NCBI GenBank assembly: GCA_976551045.1
Contig: CDPCPM010000043.1
Location: 2,976,001-3,040,000 of the forward strand
Reading direction: 5' to 3'
Source: Glaucostegus cemiculus
Taxonomy: Eukaryota
Length of the DNA: 64,000 nt
Position 1 is the first letter of the stretch; every line of letters begins with the position of its first letter. The translations under genes and the position numbers were made by a program. The notes under the pieces were generated by a model. The model made no database searches. It saw only the letters and a list, made by a program, of their open reading frames with translations, and was not told the DNA's origin. Shown piece after piece: positions 1 through 22,400 of the stretch.

Positions 1-439
1 ACTTTTCTTTCATATTAAGTTCAGTTTAAACTATAGCCTAACATAAGAATTTCAATAACAGCAGCAAATATCTACAAAACTGGACAAAAAGAGGAAGCAG
101 GGAAAAGATTAGAGAAAGAGGCAAATTATTTTATGCATAAGTAAAGCCCTTTTAAACATTGTATGATGAAGATTCCCCTGAGGTCAAGTATTTACAGTTT
201 CTCACTGAGGCTGCTATGTGTTGGCAAGCATTTCAATCTCATAGGTCATTGCACATAGTTGGTTGCATCAATTTAGTTGACTTACGAGATATCCACTGTA
301 CATACTGCCAGCTGAAACTCTTTTGTCAAGAACAAGAGCTGAGCCGAGTTCCCCTTCTGTATCACAAAGTTACAACATAGCTTCTTTTTCTGCGGTGGTG
401 ATAGCACATGATGTTCTGGAGGCAGCTTATGGTGTCTAA

Positions 440-1230
440 TATGGGCACATAAGTGTTGACCATATTGGCTGGAATGGATTGGAGGGCAAATTTTTTTATG
501 ATATGTTACATTATTTGACTTCTACTGCTGCAGTCTACCAGGACTTTGCATTTCACTCAATGTAAAAGATGGTCAAACTTCCTTTATCAAGTTCAAATCC
601 CATTTAGGGTTATCTTTGGAAAGTCTAGTCAAGTACCAATGAGGTCTTTGTTCAGGATATGTTGTTCCATTGAGATTTCCTATTGTTCCATTCTATTAAA
701 CAAGGGTATGTCATTGAAGTCATCATGGTGGCTATTTGAGTTCCTATCGTAGTGTGCCTTCCATTTTGTGATGGATTGGATTATAGGTGTACAAAGATAT
801 AATTAACAAAATGAGCAATAGAGGATTCTTTCCTCATGTCTTCAGGATCACAGTTTGCTTGTGTTAGGAGCCAGTTTACTTAAGTACTCGGGTGTTGTAA
901 CACATGGCTGTGTTTAGTTGCATGTCTAGTGTCTTGTGTGGTGACAGTCATCCATACGGGAGTGCAGCTCTCCATTGTGGAGTACACAAAGGCCAAAACA
1001 GCCATTTGCAGGGTCTTTGCTCTTTGGATTCTGCAGGAGGCTTATCTACATCTTCAGCTTTCCCCTAGACATTAACTTACTTGAAGATGAAGTGATAATC
1101 GAGCTATATTCATCAGTACCTTCCAAAGTCCATATATTTCACCTTCTGCCAGAAGGAGTTAACATCTAGTTTATGAGCAGCAGATTTATTGTGGAGGTGT
1201 ATGGATAATAAATGCTGGTTTTTGTTAGCC
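440..1230 (-). mobile_element. Highly degenerate Vingi/Ingi-like LINE, 3' part of the RT ORF
   Basis: Broken-frame peptides HLHNKSAAHKLDV, AKTLQMAVLAFVYSTMESCTPVW, LDMQLNTAM, NWLLTQAN and DCSSRSQIM*HII occur in the order of Vingi ORF motifs; boundaries approximate. Confidence 0.6.
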
Positions 1231-1474
1231 TGTGGAATGAATTAAAAAGTAGTTGTTTTCAAATAAAATCTTAAAATCTGTAACCTAATTTGCAAGCTTG
1301 ACTAATAATGGAACAAAAAAATTACAGCATTCAAGAAATACATAAAATGTAGGATTTTTTAAATTATTAGCATTCTTTTAAAATATGATAAAATGAAATA
1401 CCTTGGCCAGTGAGTGATAATACAGCTTTTTGATATTTATAACATTCTTCTCTTCTGTACTGTTATGTTCATAG

Positions 1475-1585
1475 ACCTCTGTCGTGGAGATTGTTACTCT
1501 CAATTTCGAGCTTATTGAAACAACCTGTCCTAACAGTAATGAGACTGTAACTGACACGTGTGGTCCAAAGATCCCTGCAACAGCA
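1475..1585 (+). CDS. Internal exon of a cystatin-superfamily (SPP2/Spp24- or cathelicidin-like) gene
   Basis: Pyrimidine tract + catag|ACC...GCA|gtaagt; phase 0-0; 111 nt; TSVVEIVTLNFELIETTCPNSNETVTDTCGPKIPATA, with the LxFxxxETTC-X10-C cystatin motif. Confidence 0.82.
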
Positions 1586-1732
1586 GTAAGTTGCTGGCAT
1601 TGTAGTTTTAATTGCCTTTTACTGCATTTTGTATCAGATAATGTAGACCACTGCTTTGAAGACTACATCTAGCTATACTTTGAGGCTTTATTCATAGTAC
1701 CAGATTTAATCTGTCATATTTATTCTATGTAG

Positions 1733-1846
1733 GGTTCAGCTATCTGTTTAACTACACAGAACAATGACATCTTTGGAAAACTAATATACCACAAGTTACA
1801 GTGCAACGTGACACAAGATTGGAAAGTCTATATACTCAATTACACG
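1733..1846 (+). CDS. Next exon of the cystatin-fold gene (second disulfide)
   Basis: tgtag|GGT...ACG|gtaaac; phase 0-0; 114 nt; GSAICLTTQNNDIFGKLIYHKLQCNVTQDWKVYILNYT; starts with xxAxC as the matching SPP2 exon does; donor position less certain. Confidence 0.75.
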
Positions 1847-2189
1847 GTAAACTCTGATTAATTTTTTAAAAATACATAATTTTCCACATATTTATTTTTA
1901 GAGCTTTACCCAGTGGCCCAGCAGTTTAAGATGGTGAGAACCTTACAGACCTAGAAAATCCAGTCTGTGCTATGTTAGTGAAAATCAACAGTATATCAGT
2001 TGGAATGCTGCACTTTGCAAACCTTGCTATGGGATAAAATTGGCAGTCTTTGCTGATCACTGTCCTTTTGAAAGGGTAGCTTTGTGTATCCTCTTTTTCT
2101 TCTTTTTTTCTTACCTTCTTAGTCCCTCAAAGTTGAGGATGACTTTCTTTTCCCCTTACAATGGCCAATTAATCTCTCCATCCAAAAAC

Positions 2190-2365
2190 GTTTGGATTAA
2201 TTGGCCATTGTAAATTGCCAATAGTGTGTAGGTGAGAAGTAGTATCTGGGGAATGCTGGAAAAGTGGAGAGAATAAAATGGAATCAGTATAAGATTAATG
2301 TAAATGAGTGCTTGATGGTCAACACAGACTCAGTGAGCTCAAGGGCACATGTGCTGTATGACTCC
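2190..2365 (+). mobile_element. Degenerate SINE 3' fragment (HE1-like)
   Basis: ggattaattggccattgtaaattgcc...gtgtgtagg body with a CR1-type tail ending gtgctgtatgactc. Confidence 0.5.
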
Positions 2366-4318
2366 AAGATGTAAGTGCATGATTTCATTATCTCAGCAAC
2401 CTTGTACAAACATAAAACTTCATGCCTCATCTGCTCCTAAGTGAGGCTGTATTAACATCCTTCAATTCCACCAAGTACATTTCATTAATTTAAATTAAGC
2501 CTCACTGGAAATCCTGTAAAACCTCTTAGTTGCAGATGAAGTAGCTCCATTCAACAATGTTTAGCGAGATAAAGTACATCTTTAAGGCCACCCAGAAAAC
2601 ATTCCAATCTGAAACACTTACACTTTCGGCACTTTTCTAGTGAATTATATGCATCTCCAGAATATGCAGCCTGAGTACAGGTGTGGCTGCAGCCAATATG
2701 CTCTGTTCCTAACATAATATTGCAATTATAATTGGAAGTAGTAATTCCTCATCAATGGGGTGGGAATGCCATCAGGAAGAGTTGCTTTTTTATGCTCCAA
2801 TATGTATTTCAAAGTGGTGTGGCAAAATTTGGGAGGAACTATTTGCATTCTTTTAAAATGACTGAATTTTAATGGCTTTGGTTAAGGACATTATTGAAGG
2901 ATAATATACATTTTAATATTGTTACCACCCAATTGATTTGTTTACTTAAACACCTCTAACCTAGTACTCACTGCAATAAAAGTGTGACACTATTGTAATG
3001 TCCAAAGTACAAAATAGCTGGCAGATTAAATTTTCATCTCTTTAATTATATGGCAGCCAAAGTTGGTCTTTACAAGAATAATTCATTCAATTTTTTTTAG
3101 CTTTGATTCCCTTTCACAAAACTGTGTTGACTTTGCCTGATTGCCTTAATTTTTTTTCTGTGGCCTACTCTAACATCCTCATTAAATCTTCGAACATTTC
3201 CCTGTGATGCATTAACTGGCCTTAGTTTTCTGAATTTCTGATGATGTACAATGAAATAAAATTACTGTTGGATAAATAGATTAAGATATTAATATTTTCT
3301 TTGTAAACCCTGCAAAAAAGCTGCTAGTGAAGTCAAGAAACAAAATTAGCGAATAACCTTATGACTTGTATGTATATATATTTTAAGATCTATGCGCCTT
3401 ATTCCCTTTAACAAAATCTTAATGTTTAAAGTTCAATTGACTCGGCATCAAAGCCTTAAAAGAGAATTGTGCAACAACATACTACAACCCTTTGTCTGCA
3501 AACTACTTCCTGATATTTCCACTGGAAAGGTTTAGTTCTATTTTAAGATAATTTCTTCTTGCTCTTAATTTCCCTACCAGAGCCAATAGCTATCCTATAT
3601 CTTGCCTAGAAAATCCTCTTAACATCTGTAAAATGTCACTGATATAATGATTTTTCTCTGAACATAATGAATTTTGCAGGAAGAGAGGATAAACTGCCCA
3701 GCACATGAAGCAAACAGATCATATTGGCATCCATGTATCTGTTATTAGTGGAGGGAATGTACTTCCATTGAAGAAATATTTGCATAATGTCTCATTGTAT
3801 TTTTGTATTGCATTTGTTGTGCCTATTTTAAAGATCAAGGCTGGTCCTTCACAGAAACGGCAGAGGTTTCCCTATAAGTAGAAATATTGATTTAGCAATA
3901 GCAGTTCTTGCTAGTTTCTTCTAAACTGGAACTGAAAACTTACAAACATTTTCTAATTTTCATGCTTTGCTCACTAATGTCAATCAGTCTCCAATTCACA
4001 TCAAGATTTTATGTCCGAGCAATTAGACCTTTGGGCTTAAAAAACAGGGGTCTTAAATACAGCTGCAGTAGAACAATAATTTATGCATTAGATGGTGTGC
4101 ACCTGCCATATCATCTGCCTGTCACTTATAATCCAGTTGTTACTAGAAAGATAAACTAATATTATGAAATGACTGACTTAATGGAAATCATATTTCAAAG
4201 CTTACTTTTTGTCTGGATCCTCTCAATAATGTAGTCAGTAATGCAATACAAATATAAAGCTTTAAATATGTTATTTGTCCCAGTTTATACTTATGGTTAC
4301 TTACCATCCTGTATCTAG

Positions 4319-4537
4319 GAAGTCTCCAGGAATGAAACTAATTACTTAAAAGAGTTGCAGCCCAAGGAGTTGGCGATATCTGAAATCACAATCAAAACTT
4401 CTGTTGAACCTGAAACAGAACACCCAACTGAGGCTCCCGCAGGACCCCAAAGCTCAGAAAAACCAATAATCTTGCTGGAAGAGTCTAGGCCCACTGTAGC
4501 AATTGAAATCACTGATTCTGAACTAATAGATGAATAA
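4319..4537 (+). CDS. Probable terminal coding exon of the cystatin-fold gene; acidic E/T/S/P-rich tail
   Basis: The frame opens exactly at tctag|GAA in phase 0; EVSRNETNYLKELQPKELAISEITIKTSVEPETEHPTEAPAGPQSSEKPIILLEESRPTVAIEITDSELIDE*; polyA signals follow. Confidence 0.62.
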   Translation, partial: EVSRNETNYLKELQPKELAISEITIKTSVEPETEHPTEAPAGPQSSEKPIILLEESRPTVAIEITDSELIDE

Positions 4538-4747
4538 AAACAGAGAAAGTAAATTGACAGATAGTCTAATTTTCAAATACATCTGATGATCAGATTGTGG
4601 AAGTATACTCACAGACCAGTAAAACAACTAGATTCAAGCAGTATGTTTAGTTCTCTGAAAATATGCAATACATTTTAAATACATAGCAAATCTTTGTACC
4701 TAGAAAGAGTGGTAGATGTTGATATTTCAAAAGATTTTAATGCATCC

Positions 4748-4753
4748 AATAAA
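4748..4753 (+). terminator. Candidate polyadenylation signal of the plus-strand gene
   Basis: AATAAA followed about 20-40 nt later by a GT-rich tract (ctgttctattgtgtgtttttgg); a second AATAAA overlaps the stop at 4533-4538. Confidence 0.55.
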
Positions 4754-7097: not shown

Positions 7098-7103
7098 TTT
7101 ATT
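7098..7103 (-). terminator. Candidate RELN polyadenylation signal (AATAAA)
   Basis: Plus-strand tttatt about 250 nt past the stop. Other AATAAA hexamers occur near 7255 and 7311, so the site actually used is uncertain. Confidence 0.55.
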
Positions 7104-7353: not shown

Positions 7354-7450
7354 TTAAATGTTTCGTCTGAGTGACCTTCGCCTTCTGCTGTAGTAGTGCC
7401 TGAGCATATGTTGCCTTGAGAAGTTCATCATGTAGTTCTGTTTACGAGTC
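7354..7450 (-). CDS. RELN: Reelin terminal coding exon (~65), basic C-terminal region
   Basis: tgcag|G ACT CGT...ATT TAA; [31 protein letters not shown]. Confidence 0.98.
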
Positions 7451-10400
7451 CTGCAATCAAAGGAAATGAGCTGAATAAAGCACTGACACTGCAAAAGACA
7501 CTCAGAAAAACTAGCTTTCCATTTTTCAATAATGGATCTTTTTCAGCATAAGCCAACTATTGACATTCCTTGAAGCTTCTCAAATTGCCAGTGACTGCAG
7601 ACAAAAAAAAGGAATAAATACCATCTTCACAGCACAGAACTCAGATACTTACAAGACAACCTCCACATGATCTAAAGCCCATTGGTCATGACCTGCTCCA
7701 TTGTGACGTGGTTGCCACCATCTTAGTAGTACACCTTTAACTCGTGCCTCTCTGTTGCAACAAGGATCAAGATGTTAGCCAACTATTCAGAGTAATTTCA
7801 AAACATTTGAGGATATTTTGTTCTAAAACTTTTAGGAAAAGTGATTTCCTTTGTAGTATATGAATTACCCATGCAGGCCATCGTCTGGATGAAGAACGCC
7901 CGGCATATGGACATCCCTACATATGAGTGAACTCCCATAATATTATTAAATTCAGAAGTCCGCCATATGTATACACATTCGTTCCTATGAACAGCAGAAC
8001 TAGTCTCCACTTTTAGTAATTGTTCTTTCTTTCCAGTCTTGTGTTTTTGATACCATTCATTATAATACTGTGGAGGTATGTTTAGCTTATTGAGTGATTT
8101 TTGTGTATTTTCTGATTTAGGGACAAAATAGACATGAAAATCTGTAAACAAAGAACCCTTTCATTTACTGGGGTCAGCCTATAATAGGTACCATGAGACA
8201 GAATTGTTACAATTCTACTAAGCTGTTAAAATGAAGTATTTATCCTTTAATCTCAGGAGGGAAGACAGCAGTGTGCAGAATTGGAGACCTCTGTTTCATA
8301 AATGAAGCAGCAACGATGACCCTGAAGTATTTCCTAGAATTTTGCAAACTGATATTAATTTCTTTAACACAAATGCCTTCTAATTTTTTAGATTTAGTAA
8401 AATGTTTCCTTTCAATTGTAAATAGTGTCATTGATTATGTAGCACTTAATGACAGAAGTACACTTTTAATGTCTATGATGAACAATGTCATCAAAAGTAT
8501 TCAGGTGCAATTGTTTTTCAAACATAATTCTTGATCTAATTTTTCTTTATATCGAGAACATCTGTACAACTTGTACCACATGCACGAGGGAGCTGTGGAT
8601 AGCAGTAATTCCTAGCATTATGAAATAATTAAATACAACCGCCAAGACAAACCACTGAATAGACTGGTGGCCAGATCCATTATCATACAAGTCAGTGTAC
8701 ATATGACTTAAACCAGGTTAGACCGTGCTAACTGGGAAATTAGCCCAGGCACTTATGTATGCAATTCACATTAGAGCATTCAACATTTTCCAGCATCAGT
8801 TGTGCACGTATCGACTTTACAAATCATGCACTGCGTTTCCTGCTCTGTTGGCATCAATTGCAGTTTTAGTATGCAACCTATAACCTTTGTTAAATAGCCA
8901 CAGTAAAACTGGGAGTACATTGTGCTTCTTTATTACATTTTTGTCCATATAAAGAACATTTCCTTGACATTGAGACACCTGAGAATTAACTGCAGGCTGC
9001 TCAATCATCCTCCAAAGGACATGGTGTGCTTAAATTAACAGAGTTGTTAATTGATGTGAGCTGAGATACACATTTAATGAATAGTTCATTCAGGACATGC
9101 TGGCAGCATTCCATTATTATGGAGATAATGACACTGGGAAGTCAGTGAAGAGGAGGCAAACATCTGCATAGAGATGACCTTCCACTAAGTCTTCAGAGAC
9201 ACCAGAAAATATCTGCACCTCTCTGATGTAAGCACAGGCTCAAGCTTTCAATGGTTTCAGCTAAACTCTCATGGACTGCTCTCTACTTCGTGGTCAAGGT
9301 CACCTTGACTCCCAGCCACCTCACCACAGGATTTACCAAACGACCATAGTACAGCCCCGTCATGCCTCTCATTTGGTTACATTAAAGAGGTCACCAGTCA
9401 CTGCATTTGCCCAGAGATGTATTTTTATATTTTGATTTCATTAACAAACAGGTGACATCTTGGGCACAGGAATTAATCAGCCTTGCCAGCTTCCCACAGG
9501 TGCAGGCAGCCACTGACCTCACTCATGCCCAGTAAGGACTCCTCTTAATAAGCCAGGTGGTGTGCATCATCAGACCTTCCTGATGGTGAATCCTCTGTTA
9601 CTGGGAAGCACACATGATACATTCATCCTCGGAGAGAGCAAACAGCCAGATGTTTTTCATGGCCAACACTGCCAGAAGGGATGAATCTTGGGTGATGTGG
9701 GCTCCCCTTTATTTCCCTGGCTGCTGACACTAACTCACAGTCTATAATGTGAGCAACACGGGCACTAGAAGCATAGAAAAGTCTATGGTCTTCCAAGAAT
9801 TATATTCTAGTGTCCTGCACCAGTCTGGAGCTATACAACAGTTCAAGCTTAGTAAGGGAGAGACTTCATGCCACACACCCAGCAATGTGAAGACAGCAAC
9901 CGGTGCCGGAGTAAGAGCAGCATCTGGCCCTGGAGGCCGAGGGACACAAGTTACAGGCCAAAGAACAGCAGGAGGACAAGGAGCGAGAGAACAATGAAGG
10001 AAACCAGGGCAGCCCCAGCAGAGCAGGGGAAGGAGGCCTTGTTTACACAGCCGATGGAGAGAAGGTTTTCCATAAAGAGTCTGTAAAATCAACCTAGTTA
10101 AAGAGCTCAGTCTCCACATTCAACACGTAATTCACCAGTGGGAGAGCCCGACTCGCACACAGGGCTGGATCGTCGTAACCGCCCAGCTGCAGTAAGAGCT
10201 GGTGTTTGCCTGTTTCTGTGGAGCAGCTGGCAAACCAGCCAGCTCTCTGCCTCCTCACCACCTGCTCACCGGTAAGGCTGGTCCCTTACCACACTGCTGG
10301 GAGCTGGGCTCTTCCCAGGCCCCGAGCTGGTGGGTGGCTCCCGTCCCTCAGGTGAAACTGAACAAACCAGTCAAGAGACTGACTCGGGTTTGGCCTGAGG

Positions 10401-13400
10401 GAAAAGTCTTAGCCCTACAGGATTGCCTGGAAACTATGGACTGGAACACCTTCAAAGAAGCAGCCACTCAGGACAACCACATTGACATCCAAGAGTATAC
10501 AGACTCTGTGCTATGCTACATCAGGAAGTGCACTGAGGATGTAACTGTGGACAAAGTGACTACAGTGAGGGCAAATCAGAAGCCCTGGATGACTGGGGAG
10601 GTTCGCTGTCTGCTACGTACCAGAGATTCAGCTTTCAGGGCGAGGGATGAGGAAGCTTTGAAGTCTGCAAGGAAGGACCTGTCTTGGGGTATTAAAAAGG
10701 CAAAACGACAATACGCAGAAAAGATAAATAATAATTTCACCAACGACAAGGATGCGAGGCGTCTGTGGAAGGGAATCCAGGTCATCACTGACTACAAAGC
10801 TCCACCCCAGGTTTGTGATGGTGACTCATCACTACCAGACCAGTTGAACGAATTTTATGCAAGGTTTGAGGCAATGAACCATACACCTGCCTCGAAAGCC
10901 CGGCCTTCGCCAGAAGAACAGGCTTTGAGACTCACCCCAGCCAGTGTGGGGAAAGCCCGTTCACAGGTTAACCCTCGGAAGGCTGCGGGACCGGATAACA
11001 TACCGAGGCGGATATTCAAGGACTGTGCGGACCAGCTTAAAGATGTACTGGCTGACATCTTCAACATCTCCCTACAGCAGGCTGTTGTTCCTAAGTGCCT
11101 AAAATCTGCCACCATCATACCTGTTCCCAAGAAATCTCCTCCAAAGTGTCTGAATGACTACCGTCCTATAGCTCTAACACCGATTGTCATGAAATGCTTT
11201 GAGAGGCTAGTTATGAAGCACATTAGAGCCTCCCTCCCCCCATCCTTGGATCCTCATCAGTATGCTTATCGGGCAAACAGGTCCACCGATGATGCAGTCT
11301 CCTCTGCCATGCACTCTGCACTACATCATTTAGAGAAGAAGGACTCATACTGCCGACTGCTATTCACTGACTTCAGCTCCGCTTTCAATACCATCATCCC
11401 GCAACAGCTTATCAGGAAGTTGAGCGCTCTGGGCATTAACACTCCTCTCTGCAACTGGATTTTCTAACTTGCAGGCCGCAGTCAGTCAAAATTGGTGAAA
11501 ACACCTCAAGCACCATCACACTGAGCACTGGCTCCCCTCAGGGTTGTGTGCTCAGTCCGCTCCTGTTCACCTTGTTGACCCACAACTGTGAGGCCAGATT
11601 CAGCTCCAACCGCATTGTTAAATTTGCCGATGACACGACAGTGGTGGGTCTTGTCACGGATGACGATGAGTCGGCCTACAGAGAGGAGGTGAACCAACTA
11701 GCCGTGTGGTGCCATGACAACAACCTCTCCTTGAATGTGGATAAAACCAAGGAGATGATAGTGGATTTTAGGAGGGGTCATCGTGTGCACGCCCCGCTGA
11801 CCATCAACGGGTCTGCTGTGGAACAAGTACGCAGCACCAAGTTCCTGGGGGTGCACATCACCGACGACCTGACCTGGTCCACTAGCATTACGGCCCTCAC
11901 GAAGAAGGCTCAGAAACGCCTCTACTTCCTGCGGAGACTGAGGAAAGCGTACCCACATCCCTCAGTCATGAAATCCTTCTACAGGGGGACCACTGAGAGC
12001 ATCCTAACTCAATGTATCACTGTTTGGTTTGGAAGCTGCTCAGCTGCTGGGCGGAAGTCCCTCCAGAAGATAGTTAGGGCTGCGGAGTGGATCATAGGTG
12101 TCTCGCTTCCATCCCTCGCAGACATATACAAAGACCGTTGTGTGAGGAAGACCAAAAGCATAATGGCCGACCCTTCTCACCCCTCCCACCACCTCTTCAC
12201 AATTTTGCCATCAGGGAGGAGGCTTAAATGTATCAGGGCAAGAACGTCCAGGGTGAACAATAGCTTCTTTCCGCAAGCCATCAGAACTGCAAACTCACTC
12301 ATCCCTCCATCTTCCTTTGTTAACACTAAGAGATGCTAGGTGTACAGAAATGCACCAGCACTTTAAATGCCGACACCAGCCCGTTCACTTTAAGAACTAT
12401 TTATTTATTTTCTGGCCATTTTTAATTCAATCTGCGTAATAATTCAATTTCAATCTCCATAGCTTCTAATGTGTAATGTTTTGTACTGTGTATTCTGCCA
12501 AGTGTGTATGTGTCTCTCGGTTGGTTGTTATGTTATTCTTTTTTATGGGACGAGCACCTGAGGAGGACGGTATCTCGCTCCTATGCGTACTATGTATGTA
12601 TATGGTTGTGACAATAAAACTGATTCTGATTCTGATTCAGCGATCCAACGCTGCTGAGATTTTATTTTGGAGTAATTGGTCTGCAGAAAGGTGAGGAGCC
12701 TCTGGCTGAGTGAAACCCCAGCCCTTCTCAGGCTCTCTGACTCAATCCAGAACTACTGTGTCAGTGAGGGAGAACTACACTGGGTGAACATTGCCTTGTC
12801 TCAGCCCGACTTTTGGGCAAACTATAATGCAGGCAGAGGGATTTTGACAAACAATGAAGTGAAATCAAAAGCTGGAGCTAGTTATTTTTAGTTTAAAAGA
12901 AAAACTCCCTCCGTCCCAGATGATTGCGTTGAAAGCCCCAAATGTTTCTCAGCTGTGTGATTATTTTGGAGGTGGGAAGCGGGCAGAAGGGTACAGTCGA
13001 GAGACATCAACAAGAGTTTGATCATCTAGCATTTGTGAAACAAAGGTGGTGATGCCTCAGTGCGTGCATCAGCCAGTCATGTGACCTTTCCCTCGCACAG
13101 ATGATCAGCATGGAGTGCACTGTGAGGTTAGCCTCACAAGCTCATCAGGAGTTCTGGCTTTTGAACGGTTCCTGAGTGGCTGATGTTACAACCACAACAG
13201 CAGGACTGTTGGCTTGGTTGATCCAGCCAAGAGTAATCTCTGACATCCTCCTTTGCAGAACTACCTGCACTGATCACTATGCATCAATGAATGAATCTTT
13301 GATCCATTTTAGTGGTCTGCAGCTCACCCTGACACCTCTTGTAAGAATGTGAAATTTGTTTGTCGTCGCTCATTTGAGTGGAGATTCTTACACCTGGAGC

Positions 13401-16400: not shown

Positions 16401-19400
16401 GGGGTTTGTCAGGTCAATATTGCAGCTTGCTGTATGTGACAGGCTGCCAATCTGCAGCACAAACATGATTTTGCTAAGGAGAAAGGAAAATATTTTCTAT
16501 TTAGTAAGTACACCATCAGAACTCTTCATTTTGGAATTCAAAGTTCAGAAAAATGATTAAACCCAAAGGAGTTCACATATTTACCAAATCTTATCAGTAA
16601 ACATGCAAGTAATTTTATATAAAGAGCAGAAAAGATTGAAGGAATTACTTCTGTAAAAGAGTTTGCTCATTGTCTGTGTTAAACTATAAAATTATATTAT
16701 TTTAAATGATGTTTCAATAACATTTTTAGAATATCAGCCATAGTCATTTTGGGTCTCCATTTTAAAAAGCTTGGAAACAATTCTAAATACAAAATATGCT
16801 GAAAATACTTGGCAAGTCATGCATCTGTGGAGAGGGAGAGAGAGATGATGTTAATATCTTAGGTGTTGAGCTTTTATCACCGATCTTATATTAGAGCATT
16901 GATGACAGGTTAGTGAACCAAAATATTAACTTTGTTTCTCCTCTCACAGATGTTGCCTGCTCTGCTCAGTATTTCCAGCATTTTCTGTTTTTATTTATTT
17001 TAGCTTTCCAGTATCTGCAGCACTTTGTTTCTGCAAGTGGTTTTGCTTCCTGGAACAGCTCTGTTCATTTTAGTAGGAGGGGTAACATTGGACCAGCCCA
17101 GGATATGATTTGGAACCAGATTACTGGAGGTGGGCGCTGCTCCGGGATGATTCATCAGAGTACGGAGCTCCAGATCTCAAGTCACCCACTATCACCCCAT
17201 CAGTGAGCAGCTTGTGGTTAGAACAGAAAATTCACAGTGCAATTCCAACTGTCCATCTCTGCCCCATGTTAGTAGACCCAACTCTTTAAGCAACCTAAGA
17301 TAAAGTCCCAGACATAAATTTAGGACACAGAGATTCAAGGCTCACTTGCTTTGCTGCTCTGCAGCTTGGTTGAGCTTTATCCAGGATTATTGCTCCTCCC
17401 ATATATTGTGTATTATCTTCACAAACCATAGTTTGAATGTGGCACAGAAAAGATACAATCAGCTTGATATCAATTTCATTTTAAAATGTCCTTTTCCATT
17501 TTCAACTGAATATAGTCCCCTGGACAGCTTACTTATTTGAATACCCAGTAGTAAGGCTCTTCTTTTACATATAACTTTCATAAAAACAAATGCAATATTT
17601 TGTTTCTCAATGTCCTTCTGATGTTCAAGCGAAGGACAAGGAAGTTTCTTTTGAAACCATCGTGACCACAGGAATATACTTTCCTGTTAAATGTAGTTTT
17701 GAAAGGTTTCAGCTGTAATTACAGAAACCCACAATGGCTTTAACACTTCTAGCAAAACAAAGCTCACAGGTGTTTCTGAAAGGAAGTCTACCTTGCCCTG
17801 GTCAGATCCAGAAGTTTGGTTACAGCCTGTCTCATCTGACAGCCATTAAAGTACAGAGACTCCCCGTGGGCATAAGGTGCTAGTTGTCCACATCCATTGC
17901 CAATCGCACCTCCCTGAATCACCTGCCAGTTTATTTCGGTCACACGGGATGATTCAAAGTTGTCTTTGATGTAACTGGGCAGGTCATTAATTGGAACAGA
18001 ACAGTCATCTCCTGCACATGGAAGATAAACAGGTTTTAGCTATAATTGAACAAAGAAAAATAAGGGGATATATTTAAAGAGTGGATAAATGTTAATGACT
18101 ACATTTCTGTTTAAAAACATTCTAATTAGAACAATACAGCACAGAACAGGCCCTTCGGCCCATCAAGCTGTGCCATCCTACAAACATCCCAAACTAACTC
18201 TTTCCACCCTCATATCCTACTATTCCACATTCTTCCATGTGCTTATCTAACAATCTCTTAAACCTGTCCAACGTATCTGCCTCCACTACCACCCCAGGCA
18301 GTGCATTCCATGCACCAACCACTCTCTGGGTGAAAAACTTCCCTCTGACATCTCCCCTATACTTTCCACCAATTATCTTAAAGGCATGCCCTCTCGTCTT
18401 GAGCATCTGCGCTCTGGGAAAGAGGCGCTGACTATTAACTCTATCTATTCCTCTCAATATCTTAATCACCTCTATCAAGTCCCCTCTCATCCTCCTCCGC
18501 TCTAATGAGTAGAGCCCTAGCACCTTAAGCCTCTCTTTATATTCCATACCCTCCAATCCAGGCATCATCCTGGTAAATCGCCTCTGCACCCTCTCCAACG
18601 CCTCCACATCCTTCCTATAATGCGGCGACCAGAACTGAACACAATATTCCAAGTGCGGCCTAACTAGAGTTTTGTAAAGCAGCATCATCACCTCTCTGCT
18701 CTTGAACTCAATCCCTTTATTTATAAAAGCCAACATCCCATAAGCCTTCTTAACAGCCCTATCCACCTGCGAGGCAATTTTGAGTGAACTGTGGATATGA
18801 ACCCCCAGATCCCTCTGCTCCTCTACACTGCCAAGAACCTTGCCATTTACCTTATACTCTGTCCTGGAGTTTGTCCTCCCAAAGTGCACCACCTCACAAT
18901 TCTCCGGATTAAACTCCATCTGCCACCTGTCAGCCCAGTTCTGCAATCTATCAACATCCCCCTGTAAGCTCCTACAGTCCTCCACACCATCTACCACACC
19001 ACCGATCTTGGTGTCATCTGCAAACTTACCAACCCATCCCTCCACTCCTTCATCTAAATCATCTATGAATATAACAAAGAGTAGAGGCCCCAGAACTGAT
19101 CCCTGCGGGACTTCACTAGTCACAGCCCTCCAATCCGAGGGCACTCCCTCCACCATAACCCTCTGCCTTCTACAGGAAAGCCAATTTCTTATCCACACAG
19201 CCAACCTCCCCTGGATACCTCGACCCCTGATCTTCTGAAGAAGCCTGCCATGAGGAACCTTATCGAACGCCTTACTAAAATCCATATACACTACATCCAC
19301 TGCCCTGCCCTCATCAAGCTTCCTCGTCACCTCCTCAAAGAACTCTATCAGGCTCGTGAGGCAAGATCTTCCCTTCACAAAGCCATGCTGACTGTCCCTA

Positions 19401-22400
19401 ATCAGTCCATGACTCTCCAAGTGCTCATAGATCCTATCCCTCAAAATCCTTTCCAACAGCTTACCTACCACAGACGTGAGACTCACCGGTCTATAATTTC
19501 CTGAACTATCTCTACTGCCCTTCTTAAACAAGGGAACAACATCCGCTACCCGCCAATCCTCCGGCACCATCCCCGTGGACAACAAGGACTCAAAGATCCT
19601 CACCAGCGGATCAACAATCTCCTCCCTCGCCTCCCGAAGCAGCCTGGGGAATATTCCATCAGGCCCCGGAGACTTATCAGTCTTGATATTACTTAACAAT
19701 TTCATCACCTCCTCCCTCTCTATAGCTACATACTCAAGAACATTACCCTTGTCAGAACTCACCGTCACATCATCAAGGCCCCTCTCCTTGGTGAATACAG
19801 AGGAGAAGTATTCATTTAGTACCTCCCCTACCTCTGCCGCCTCCAGGCACATCCTTCCACCTTTGTCCTTAATAGGACCTACCTTTACGCTAGTCATCCT
19901 TCTGCCCTTCACATAAGAGAAAAAAGCCTTGGGATTTTCCTTAACCCTACGAGCCAACATCTTTTCATGTCCCCTTCTAGCTCTCCTCAGCTCTTTCTTA
20001 AGTTCCCTTCTCACTATACTATACTCCTCACGGGCCACATCAGAGCCTTGCCGCTTACACCTTACGTAAGCCTCCTTCTTCCTCCTAACCAGTCTTTCCA
20101 CCTCTCTTGTCACCCATGGTTCCTTCACTATTCCATTCTTCCTCCATCTTGCCGGAATATATTTGTCCCCAACATCCTGTAAAACATCCCTGAACAACAT
20201 CCACATCTCTACAGTACACATCCCCTCAAAAAGGACTTCCCAATTTACACTCCCAAGCTCTTTCCTTATAGCCTCATAGTCTGCCCTACCCCAATTGAAT
20301 ATCTTCCTACGCTCCCTGCACCTATGTCTGTCCATGACAATTCTAAAGCTTATCGAGGAATGATCACTGTCTCCCAGAGGCTCACCCACTAGTAGATCTC
20401 TCACCTGTCCCGGTTCATTTCCTAAAACCAGATCCAACACAGCATTCCCTCTAGTCGGTTTGTCAACATACTGCTCCAGAAATCCATCCTGGACACACTT
20501 AACAAACTCATTCCCATCCAAACCTCTGGCACTGAGCATGTCCCAGTCTATATTCGGGAAGTTGAAATCACCCATTATTACAACCCTATTATCTTTGCTT
20601 CTGTCCAAGCACTGCCTGCCAATCTGCTCCTCTATATTCCTACTGCTACCTGGGGGCCTATAGTATACTCCCAGCAGCGTAACCACACTTTTCCTATTCC
20701 TCACTTCCACCCACACCGACTCGAAAGAGGATCCTTCCGCAAACTCAGCCCCTTCCGCAGCCGTAACATCATCCCTGACCAATATCGCCACCCCTCCTCC
20801 TCTTCTCCCCCCCCCATCCTTTTTAAAACACTGAAAACCAGGAATGTTGCAAAGAGATGGAAAAAGTTGGACTTCCTGCACAATCTCTATACAATAGAAT
20901 TTTAAAAATATCTCTTTTGGAACATTAGAAATTGTGCATAGTAACAACAAGGCCTCTCCAATTCATCCTCCCCCACCCCAGTAGTCTACTGAGGTAATGA
21001 TTGGTGACTCATCACAGGAGTTAGTCTTCATTGGTGAAACCACACCAGTCATAAGCACAAACTGACCTAACCCCTTGTGATAATACATTTTGGGAACAGT
21101 AAGTCTAAAGTTATTTGCTACTCTGAATCACACAAAGTTCACTATTTACCTCATATGAAATTGCTCACATATTTTCAAAGACATGAAAATACTTTTTTTT
21201 TGAGTAAATCAGTACTATCTGCTTCCACCATCTCCCTAGAGACCCAAGGCACTTAACTGCTTGCTCACTTAAATAACAGGTGAAGTAACAGCACAGAAGA
21301 TATTCTGATCTCCAACCCTCTGCATTCCCCTTCTATTCAATCAGACCCATTCCAATCTCACTTTTCTGATCTCTGTCCAATCTGTCTCCATTTCCAACAT
21401 TGCTTCCAATCTTTGCCCAGTTTGCCTGGTTGCTCCTTCAATCATTGCCCAGCTCAGTCCATGTTTCATTCTCTGCTCTGAACCTCCTTCTCAGTTCTCT
21501 GAATGCCCTTCTGCTCTCTCCTTAAACAAGCTCTATCCACAAACAGAAAAAATGCCCAACATCTGGCTGTGATGCTTTTCTGGAGAACATCCACAACAGA
21601 ATGTCCACCAAATATTTAAGATTAATATTTCTTTATTAGTCGCATGTACATCGAAACACAGAGTGAAATGCATCTTTTGTGTAGTGTGCTGGGGGCAGCC
21701 CGTAAGTGTCACCACACTTCTGGCGCCAACATAGCACGCCCACAGCTCCTAACCCATAAATATTTGGAATGTGGTGGGAACCAGAGCACCTGGGGGAAAC
21801 CCATGCAGACACAGGGAGAATGCACAAAATTCTTTCAGACAGCAGCTGGAATTGAACCTGGGTCACTGGCGCTGTAATATCGTTACGCTAACCGCTGTGC
21901 TACTGTGCCGCCCTATTAAAACAGCCAAATCCTGAGTGGAGTGTTGGTTTAAAGAAAACCTGTGCTATTTTATTACAATTTCCTCTAAACACAAATCAGC
22001 TACCCAACTTCATCCCCTGCTGAGTTCCTCCAGCATCATCGTGTTTTTCACCTAACTTCATCCTACCTCCACCACTAGCCCTTGCTCAAAAATATTTCTC
22101 TTGCTTTGGGCTCTCTGTTTCCAACCAAGCAATCTCCTCCAGCACTGGCATGATTTATTTTAATGAGTCCTCAGACTTTTACCAGATTTGAAAGGTTGAG
22201 AAGAAATAACACAACATTTTTAAATTGCACATTTAGGTGCTATCACAATCAATCATGCTAGGTTTTTGCCCCACTGCAGCATCTTAATGAAGAAAAATTC
22301 GAGCTAGTACCTTGATAACCTTCATCGCAGATGCAGACAGTTCCACTTCTACAGTATCCATGCCCACTGCAGAGCCTGGGACAAGACTCGCCAATGTAGA

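Follow-up and report, generated by a model that had tools for sequence, protein, structure and literature searches.

A 64,000-nucleotide window of the genome of the ray Glaucostegus cemiculus (contig CDPCPM010000043.1, here C43, positions 2976001-3040000) contains the 3' part of a gene that lies beside the reelin gene (RELN) and encodes a 468-residue protein with three cystatin domains, D1 to D3. We consider it probable that this RELN-linked gene represents a separate, kinin-less lineage of type-3 cystatins which is as old as the gnathostomes, whose third domain arose independently of the third domain of tetrapod kininogen, and whose product may be an extracellular protease-binding regulator of changed specificity. 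The multi-domain type-3 families in the catalogue of vertebrate cystatins given in PMC2784779 are fetuin A, fetuin B, HRG and kininogen. The part of the gene inside the window, which an earlier note on this DNA had read as a divergent SPP2-like paralogue, is the second half of cystatin domain 3 and the tail of a ten-exon gene.

Gene structure

The three exons in the window, all on the plus strand, are exon 8 (1475..1585, 111 nt), which encodes hairpin I and the type-A disulfide C339-C350 of D3, exon 9 (1733..1846, 114 nt), which encodes the type-B disulfide C363-C382 and the last strands, and the coding part of exon 10 (4319..4537, 219 nt, ending in TAA), which encodes an acidic tail of 72 residues. 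Exons 8 and 9 are in phase 0 at both ends, all three exons have AG acceptors and lengths that are multiples of 3, the donors of exons 8 and 9 are GTAAGT and GTAAAC, and a candidate polyadenylation signal, AATAAA, is found at 4748..4753. The exon borders, the phase-compatible terminal exon and the polyadenylation signal given in the earlier note were confirmed, and its four-cysteine spacing of 10/12/18 was recovered as C339, C350, C363 and C382 in the full 468-residue model. A 40-residue query from exon 8 retrieved kininogen-1-like proteins of the sawfish Pristis pectinata and of Amblyraja radiata with identities of 90% and 79%, and the three window exons are colinear with the C-terminal part of both proteins. 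Since exon 8 matches annotated proteins and the three exons align colinearly, the window exons are not a chance arrangement.

The P. pectinata and A. radiata proteins were then aligned by tblastn to 200 kb of upstream DNA, which placed exons 1 to 7 upstream of the window on the plus strand of C43; positions 1..1474 of the window are the 3' part of intron 7. The signal-peptide exon that had been expected upstream is exon 1 (C43 2959349-2959561), which encodes the predicted signal peptide together with the D1 helix, and it is accompanied by six further exons, namely exon 2 (2966096-2966206), exon 3 (2969173-2969275), exon 4 (2970870-2971030), exon 5 (2971504-2971614), exon 6 (2972268-2972373) and exon 7 (2973899-2974056). 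Joined at AG/GT borders, the ten exons, of which the window holds exons 8-10, give one open frame of 468 amino acids (aa) with intron phases 0,0,1,0,0,1,0,0,0 and three exons per cystatin domain. A DNA search of this genome showed the exon stretch to be single-copy. The protein is 94.4% identical to P. pectinata XP_051890274.1, 71.8% to its counterpart in Heterodontus and 48.5% to that in Callorhinchus. Short Logan contigs of 1685 and 1526 nt carry full-length spliced open reading frames of the same kind, of 460 and 479 aa, respectively, which suggests that these contigs are transcripts and that the gene is transcribed in a skate-like and a lungfish-like source.

Protein architecture and motifs

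Three stretches matching Pfam Cystatin are found in each of the kininogen-1-like counterparts from P. pectinata and A. radiata, and each domain of the 468-aa protein has the four core cysteines, presumably disulfide-bonded. The cystatin fold proposed in the earlier note is borne out by sawfish D3, which scored 41.5 bits against a Pfam Cystatin cut-off of 22.2, and by the best Foldseek match of the sawfish AlphaFold2 model, which was fetuin-B (E 1e-10); taken singly, exons 8, 9 and 10 gave no cystatin-type match in Pfam and a weak match of the tail to DUF5908. The AlphaFold2 model used has a mean predicted local distance difference test score (pLDDT) of 70 and replaced an earlier one with a mean of 53.6. 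It consists of a hydrophobic N-terminal helix at residues 2-25, three helix-plus-sheet domains and a tail predicted to be disordered (pLDDT below 50 over residues 401-468). In a structure comparison covering D1 and D2, D2 was superposed on cystatin E/M with a Z of 16.2 and a root-mean-square deviation of 2.3 over 113 residues, and the best match of a profile search of the PDB was again fetuin-B (E 2e-15). Four NxS/T sites are present, and secretion as a glycoprotein is predicted.

Fetuin-B is thus the best solved relative in both sequence and fold: it is colinear over D1, linker and D2, it has a disulfide trunk before its second domain, and D1 of the RELN-linked protein has a longer hairpin I than D2, as does CY1 of fetuin-B (PMC6400186). 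The RELN-linked protein differs in having three domains, a trunk other than CPDCP and a hairpin I other than QWVxGP, and both of these fetuin-B motifs are absent from the lineage. The inhibitory elements are the trunk, the QXVXG hairpin and PW in cystatins, and CPDCP and QWVXGP in fetuin-B (PMC6400186). The CxxC (type-C) motif, as defined in the same source, opens D2 (C150-C153) and D3 (C275-C278), and D1 is without a trunk. Across the lineage the trunk reads CE[DGH]C or CTGC and hairpin I is typically EVVMG or EVTIG. The trunk disulfides are retained and hairpin I has its usual length, the Gly of the hairpin persists in most sequences, PW is absent, and the Gln of QxVxG has mostly become Glu (in D2 it is Glu or Lys). 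Kinin patterns of either type, QxVxG and CPG[REKQ] were found in 0 of 24 lineage sequences, bearing in mind that a highly divergent kinin could escape the patterns. The tail is rich in Glu, Thr, Ser and Pro, has 17 acidic residues (D+E) in comparison to 6 basic ones (K+R), and contains neither Cys nor a kinin motif. In kininogen a disulfide joins the N-terminal to the C-terminal domain (D1-D6; PMC8706920); the RELN-linked protein has no Cys before the D1 helix of the mature chain or in the tail, so that the CPGxPWK pairing does not occur. The legumain-loop Asn, sought at its expected position, was not evident in D1-D3. A total of 94 positions are invariant across eight chondrichthyans and the lungfish, which would point to a conserved partner of the protein.

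Comparison with kininogens

The kininogen of this genome lies elsewhere. A cluster on contig C104 (7454-83248, minus strand; loci L043-L050 and L063) holds a two-domain kininogen together with three fetuin-like genes of two domains each, and the homologues of this kininogen combine two cystatin domains with QVVAG, a GWGPF stretch and CPGxPWK. A search of C104 with an RPPG-type kinin pattern had no success and the GWGPF stretch was found via the homologues; from its position it is probably the kinin of ray and shark kininogen. The RELN-linked gene was itself tried as the kininogen of this genome and rejected, given the two-domain kininogen on C104 and its own lack of kinin, QxVxG and CPGxPWK. 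The two contigs, C43 and C104, could share a chromosome. The C104 kininogen shows 29% identity to the RELN-linked protein in the best local alignment, and its intron phases, 0,0,1,0,0,0, are those of the RELN-linked gene with one middle module taken out. Chondrichthyan kininogen, represented by the 341-aa P. pectinata protein (P0023), is likewise a type-3 cystatin whose phases agree per module, down to the phase-0 junction with the last exon, but it differs in its two domains, QVVAG, kinin-like GWGPF, CPGRPWK and position in the fetuin cluster.

Two cystatin domains are also found in the named kininogens of sevengill shark, chimaera, bichir, bowfin, one teleost and coelacanth, and the kininogens of teleosts and coelacanth are described as two-domain (PMC3835742). 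Per-domain identity between ray and sevengill shark is 73-80% for the RELN-linked gene in comparison to 46-49% for kininogen, and between ray and chimaera 49-60% in comparison to 38-46%, so the RELN-linked domains are more conserved than those of kininogen at equal depths. Tetrapod kininogen (KNG1, low-molecular-weight form) resembles the RELN-linked protein in its signal peptide, three cystatin domains with CxxC on D2 and D3, three exons per domain and C-terminal extension; the RELN-linked protein differs from it in lacking bradykinin, QxVxG, the N-terminal Cys and CPGxPWK, and in its locus. Several type-2 cystatin-like genes were also observed in this genome, on contig C108 at 3.85 Mb and 5.53-5.59 Mb (L033, L036, L037, L040 and L042).

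Domain phylogeny

The domains were compared in a 72-domain tree (LG+C20 with posterior mean site frequencies, 120 columns), which was reduced from 99 rows. The partial or fused models P0150, P0089, P0120 and P0048 were taken out, the last two being replaced by P0184 and P0180; the long-branch D2 of the coelacanth and P0069 (long D3) were also removed, and P0002, P0010, P0024, P0148, P0083, P0147, P0106 and P0072 were left out for speed. In this tree all 16 domains of the lineage formed one clade (support 98/91), within which D1, D2 and D3 each formed a clade including the lungfish. The 22 first domains of kininogens, fetuins and HRG all fell in another clade (99/98), and the D2 of tetrapod kininogens formed one clade (100/98). 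In the trees the labels fetuin-A, fetuin-B and HRG were assigned by motif and not by source name, and the HRG and fetuin-B rows are mixed. In a larger tree of 479 domains from 176 proteins, the 66 lineage domains again formed one clade with no other domain inside (support 79). Joint orthology with D1, D2 and D3 of tetrapod kininogen was rejected by the approximately unbiased (AU) test (p-AU 0.0068).

Distribution and probable loss

Counterparts were found in 13 chondrichthyan species by a word-based search and cluster look-up. The counterparts of lungfish and coelacanth were missed by the word-based search and found by a profile search of 1.84 billion representatives, which gave 275 matches (the best 150 listed, 20 named). 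The lungfish protein (XP_043944455.1, 479 aa) matched with 406 bits over its full length and has three domains, and the coelacanth protein (XP_014343497.1, 369 aa) matched with 152 bits, is colinear from the N-terminus and has two domains and a Thr-rich tail. Outside the chondrichthyans these were the only high-scoring, N-terminally colinear matches among those listed; two salamander kininogens, with five and six domains, reached scores between these two because their repeats add up. In BLAST comparisons with the sawfish protein, the lungfish protein scored 298 bits and the coelacanth protein 120, in comparison to less than 100 for all proteins outside the lineage, and all four matches of the lungfish protein in this genome fell at the RELN-linked locus. 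The lungfish tail, unlike the chondrichthyan tail, is not acidic. It was also observed that the lungfish protein (P0026) ends in DLDLL like many kininogen tails, and that shark tails carry at most decayed versions.

The restriction to cartilaginous fish that the earlier note had considered is contradicted by the lungfish and coelacanth counterparts, and its alternative of loss in bony vertebrates stands for most of them, where the gene is apparently lost, and fails for these two. No counterpart from a ray-finned fish or tetrapod was recognised among the best 150 of the 275 profile matches, and the 20 named matches include bichir, bowfin, paddlefish, salamander, reptile and mammal, so that these groups are present in the library. 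Loss of the gene in ray-finned fishes and tetrapods thus appears reasonably likely from these matches.

Origin and function

We hold with good confidence that a kininogen/fetuin-type gene would have duplicated before cartilaginous and bony fishes diverged and that domains would then have been gained when a three-exon module, bordered by phase 1 at either end, was copied. The middle module can duplicate in frame because phase-1 introns flank it on both sides, and the kininogen family appears to duplicate modules repeatedly, because salamander kininogens have four to six domains (six, five and four were observed in P0027, P0028 and P0030, respectively). Either one domain may have been triplicated, or a two-domain ancestor may have had its second domain duplicated; both ways the third domain would be independent of that of tetrapods. 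As to function, we tentatively propose that D2 and D3 may present a wedge like that of fetuin-B and cystatins, made of the disulfide-closed CxxC trunk and hairpin I, the Gly of which is mostly kept. Since Glu stands in place of Gln and PW is missing, the protein would not be expected to bind a papain-type enzyme in the manner of ordinary cystatins, and the tail may serve as a glycosylated spacer. Ordinary papain inhibition or kinin release by this protein is unlikely.

Several points weigh against the reading of a separate, gnathostome-old lineage with its own third domain. The joint AU test used a shorter constrained search and the site frequencies of the free tree, and its hypothesis was formed post hoc. 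Taken one at a time, three groupings were not rejected: D3 with SPP2 (AU p 0.14), D2 with D2 of tetrapod kininogen (p 0.095) and D1 with D1 of kininogens and fetuins (p 0.41). The 72-domain tree has only its 120 columns, its bootstrap had not settled, and its outgroup does not fall on one side of a branch, and a quick tree of 99 rows joined D2 and D3 (82) and put D1 near D2 of fetuins, so that the three domains were not united. The RELN synteny was seen in this genome alone, the coelacanth XP_014343497.1 may be a faulty model, and it is from protein sets, not from genomes, that the gene is judged absent in ray-finned fishes and tetrapods. At window positions 1484-1486, in exon 8, the Gly of D3 hairpin I is replaced by Val in this genome, in comparison to Gly in most counterparts.

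Alternative explanations

With the same gene and the same history, the protein could instead carry or chaperone mineral or growth factors without inhibiting proteases, like fetuin-A and SPP2, for which such roles are described (PMC13188829). All canonical inhibitory motifs are indeed absent, the acidic tail fits a carrier, and in chondrichthyans no domain is better conserved than D1, which lacks a trunk; against this, the domains are near neutral (charges of +4, 0 and 0 for D1, D2 and D3), SxE motifs number just 3 in the whole protein, 2 of them in the tail, the lungfish tail is not acidic, and from chimaera to lungfish most sequences retain the length and the Gly of hairpin I. We regard the carrier as rather unlikely and slightly less probable than a protease-binding regulator of changed specificity, which we tentatively favour because the trunk, the hairpin I length and mostly the Gly are kept and it is the Gln and PW that changed. 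A different history, in which each domain of the gene derives from the matching domain of an ancestral three-domain kininogen and fish kininogens lost their middle domain, would explain the equal domain count, the CxxC on D2 and D3 only and the matching intron-phase logic of tetrapod kininogen, agrees with the D2 grouping that was not rejected, and finds a weak further point in the lungfish DLDLL ending, which is shared by 17 of 54 kininogen-type and 0 of 39 fetuin-type tails and is strict in 1 of 15 lineage tails. The joint constraint was rejected, and the kininogens of ray, shark, chimaera, bichir, bowfin, teleost and coelacanth are two-domain, so that several parallel losses would be needed; we consider such shared descent improbable.

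That the gene is a divergent SPP2-like or cathelicidin-like paralogue, as the earlier note had it, we judge very improbable. Its cysteine spacing is near that given there for SPP2, sawfish D3 has a weak Spp-24 score (E 0.009), and SPP2 likewise has a four-cysteine cystatin-like domain followed by an acidic region. The best tree separates D3 from SPP2, where SPP2 is represented by two near-identical rows on a long branch; because the D3-SPP2 grouping was not rejected, it is the domain architecture, the exon plan, the locus and the profile scores that speak against SPP2. SPP2 differs in its single domain, its tail rich in Ser and SxE and its nme9/vps8/arl4c locus (PMC13188829). The RELN-linked protein has three domains and no serine-rich stretch, its signal peptide and helix share exon 1 in comparison to the separate signal exon of the two SPP2 genes examined, its best structure and profile matches are type-3 cystatins, and its tail is acidic and not a cationic peptide. 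Sawfish D3 stays below the cut-offs for both Spp-24 (16.6 in comparison to 26 bits) and Cathelicidins (14.4 in comparison to 21 bits), and the whole sawfish isoform reaches 32.5 bits for Spp-24 solely by adding up domains. In the genome, 12 of 13 Spp-24 matches lie on contig C115 and none on C43, and the window exons were not among the matches listed for the Spp-24 and Cystatin family searches. Ten of the C115 matches, when translated, gave SPP2-type exons, with a serine-rich third domain exon in the two genes examined. The earlier note's caution that the gene might be the ordinary SPP2 orthologue is answered by this SPP2 array, which has a different exon plan. In cathelicidins a single cathelin domain precedes an exon for a cationic peptide, and a cathelicidin identity is contradicted by the three domains, the acidic tail and the sub-cut-off D3 score; the Cathelicidins family search of the genome gave no match, which does not by itself show absence. 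The array at C115:4.91-5.94 Mb (L022-L031) comprises at least 12 SPP2-type exons, in agreement with the chondrichthyan SPP2 expansion already published (PMC13188829); neither 'kininogen' nor reelin was found in the available text of that source, nor 'kininogen' or 'KNG1' in 8 of its supplementary files.

Neighbouring genes

The last coding exon of RELN was identified on the minus strand at 7354..7450 by a match to the C-terminal peptide of reelin (8g21, E 4e-11), and a candidate RELN polyadenylation hexamer at 7098 is 2.35 kb from position 4753, in line with the tail-to-tail arrangement and the gap of about 2.3 kb reported in the earlier note. An SLC26 gene lies on the minus strand about 27 kb upstream, and its two tested exons best match prestin and SLC26A6, giving the order SLC26A5-like gene, triple-cystatin gene and RELN on C43. 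We take SLC26A5 and RELN to be direct neighbours in human. A possible alternative terminal exon of the triple-cystatin gene lies at 8257..8301 on the plus strand, within the last RELN intron and antisense to RELN. It is the counterpart of the end of sawfish RefSeq isoform X2, the frame diverges here after 7 codons, and a transcript with this exon would cross the last RELN exon in antisense. Two long open reading frames in RELN introns, at 10196-12339 (plus strand) and 18194-20962 (minus strand), have by eye the look of a long interspersed nuclear element (LINE) reverse transcriptase/endonuclease.

Naming and implications

The counterparts are already in the databases under automatic names, namely 'kininogen-1-like', 'kininogen-2-like' and 'T-kininogen 2-like' (XP_051890274.1, XP_032895777.1, XP_043944455.1 and XP_014343497.1), and these kininogen names are probably misleading, as the evidence points to a separate lineage. 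No description of the RELN-linked gene was found in the literature searched, including passages of PMC10707392 and PMC10499198, and it may be treated in subscription papers. From catshark skin mucus a 'cystatin kininogen-type' protein has been reported (PMC10707392), which could belong to either gene. The structure of kininogen in cartilaginous fish has been named a key open point for the evolution of kininogen (PMC3835742). Sharks and rays have two genes under kininogen names, of which the three-domain one is not a kinin precursor, and reading the RELN-linked gene as kininogen would wrongly place the three-domain state in the gnathostome ancestor. If the separate lineage and its double loss are true, a highly conserved extracellular protein would have gone near the origin of tetrapods, the gene would be a clean case of repeated domain gain via a symmetric exon module, and it would offer a testable target in catshark, skate or lungfish.

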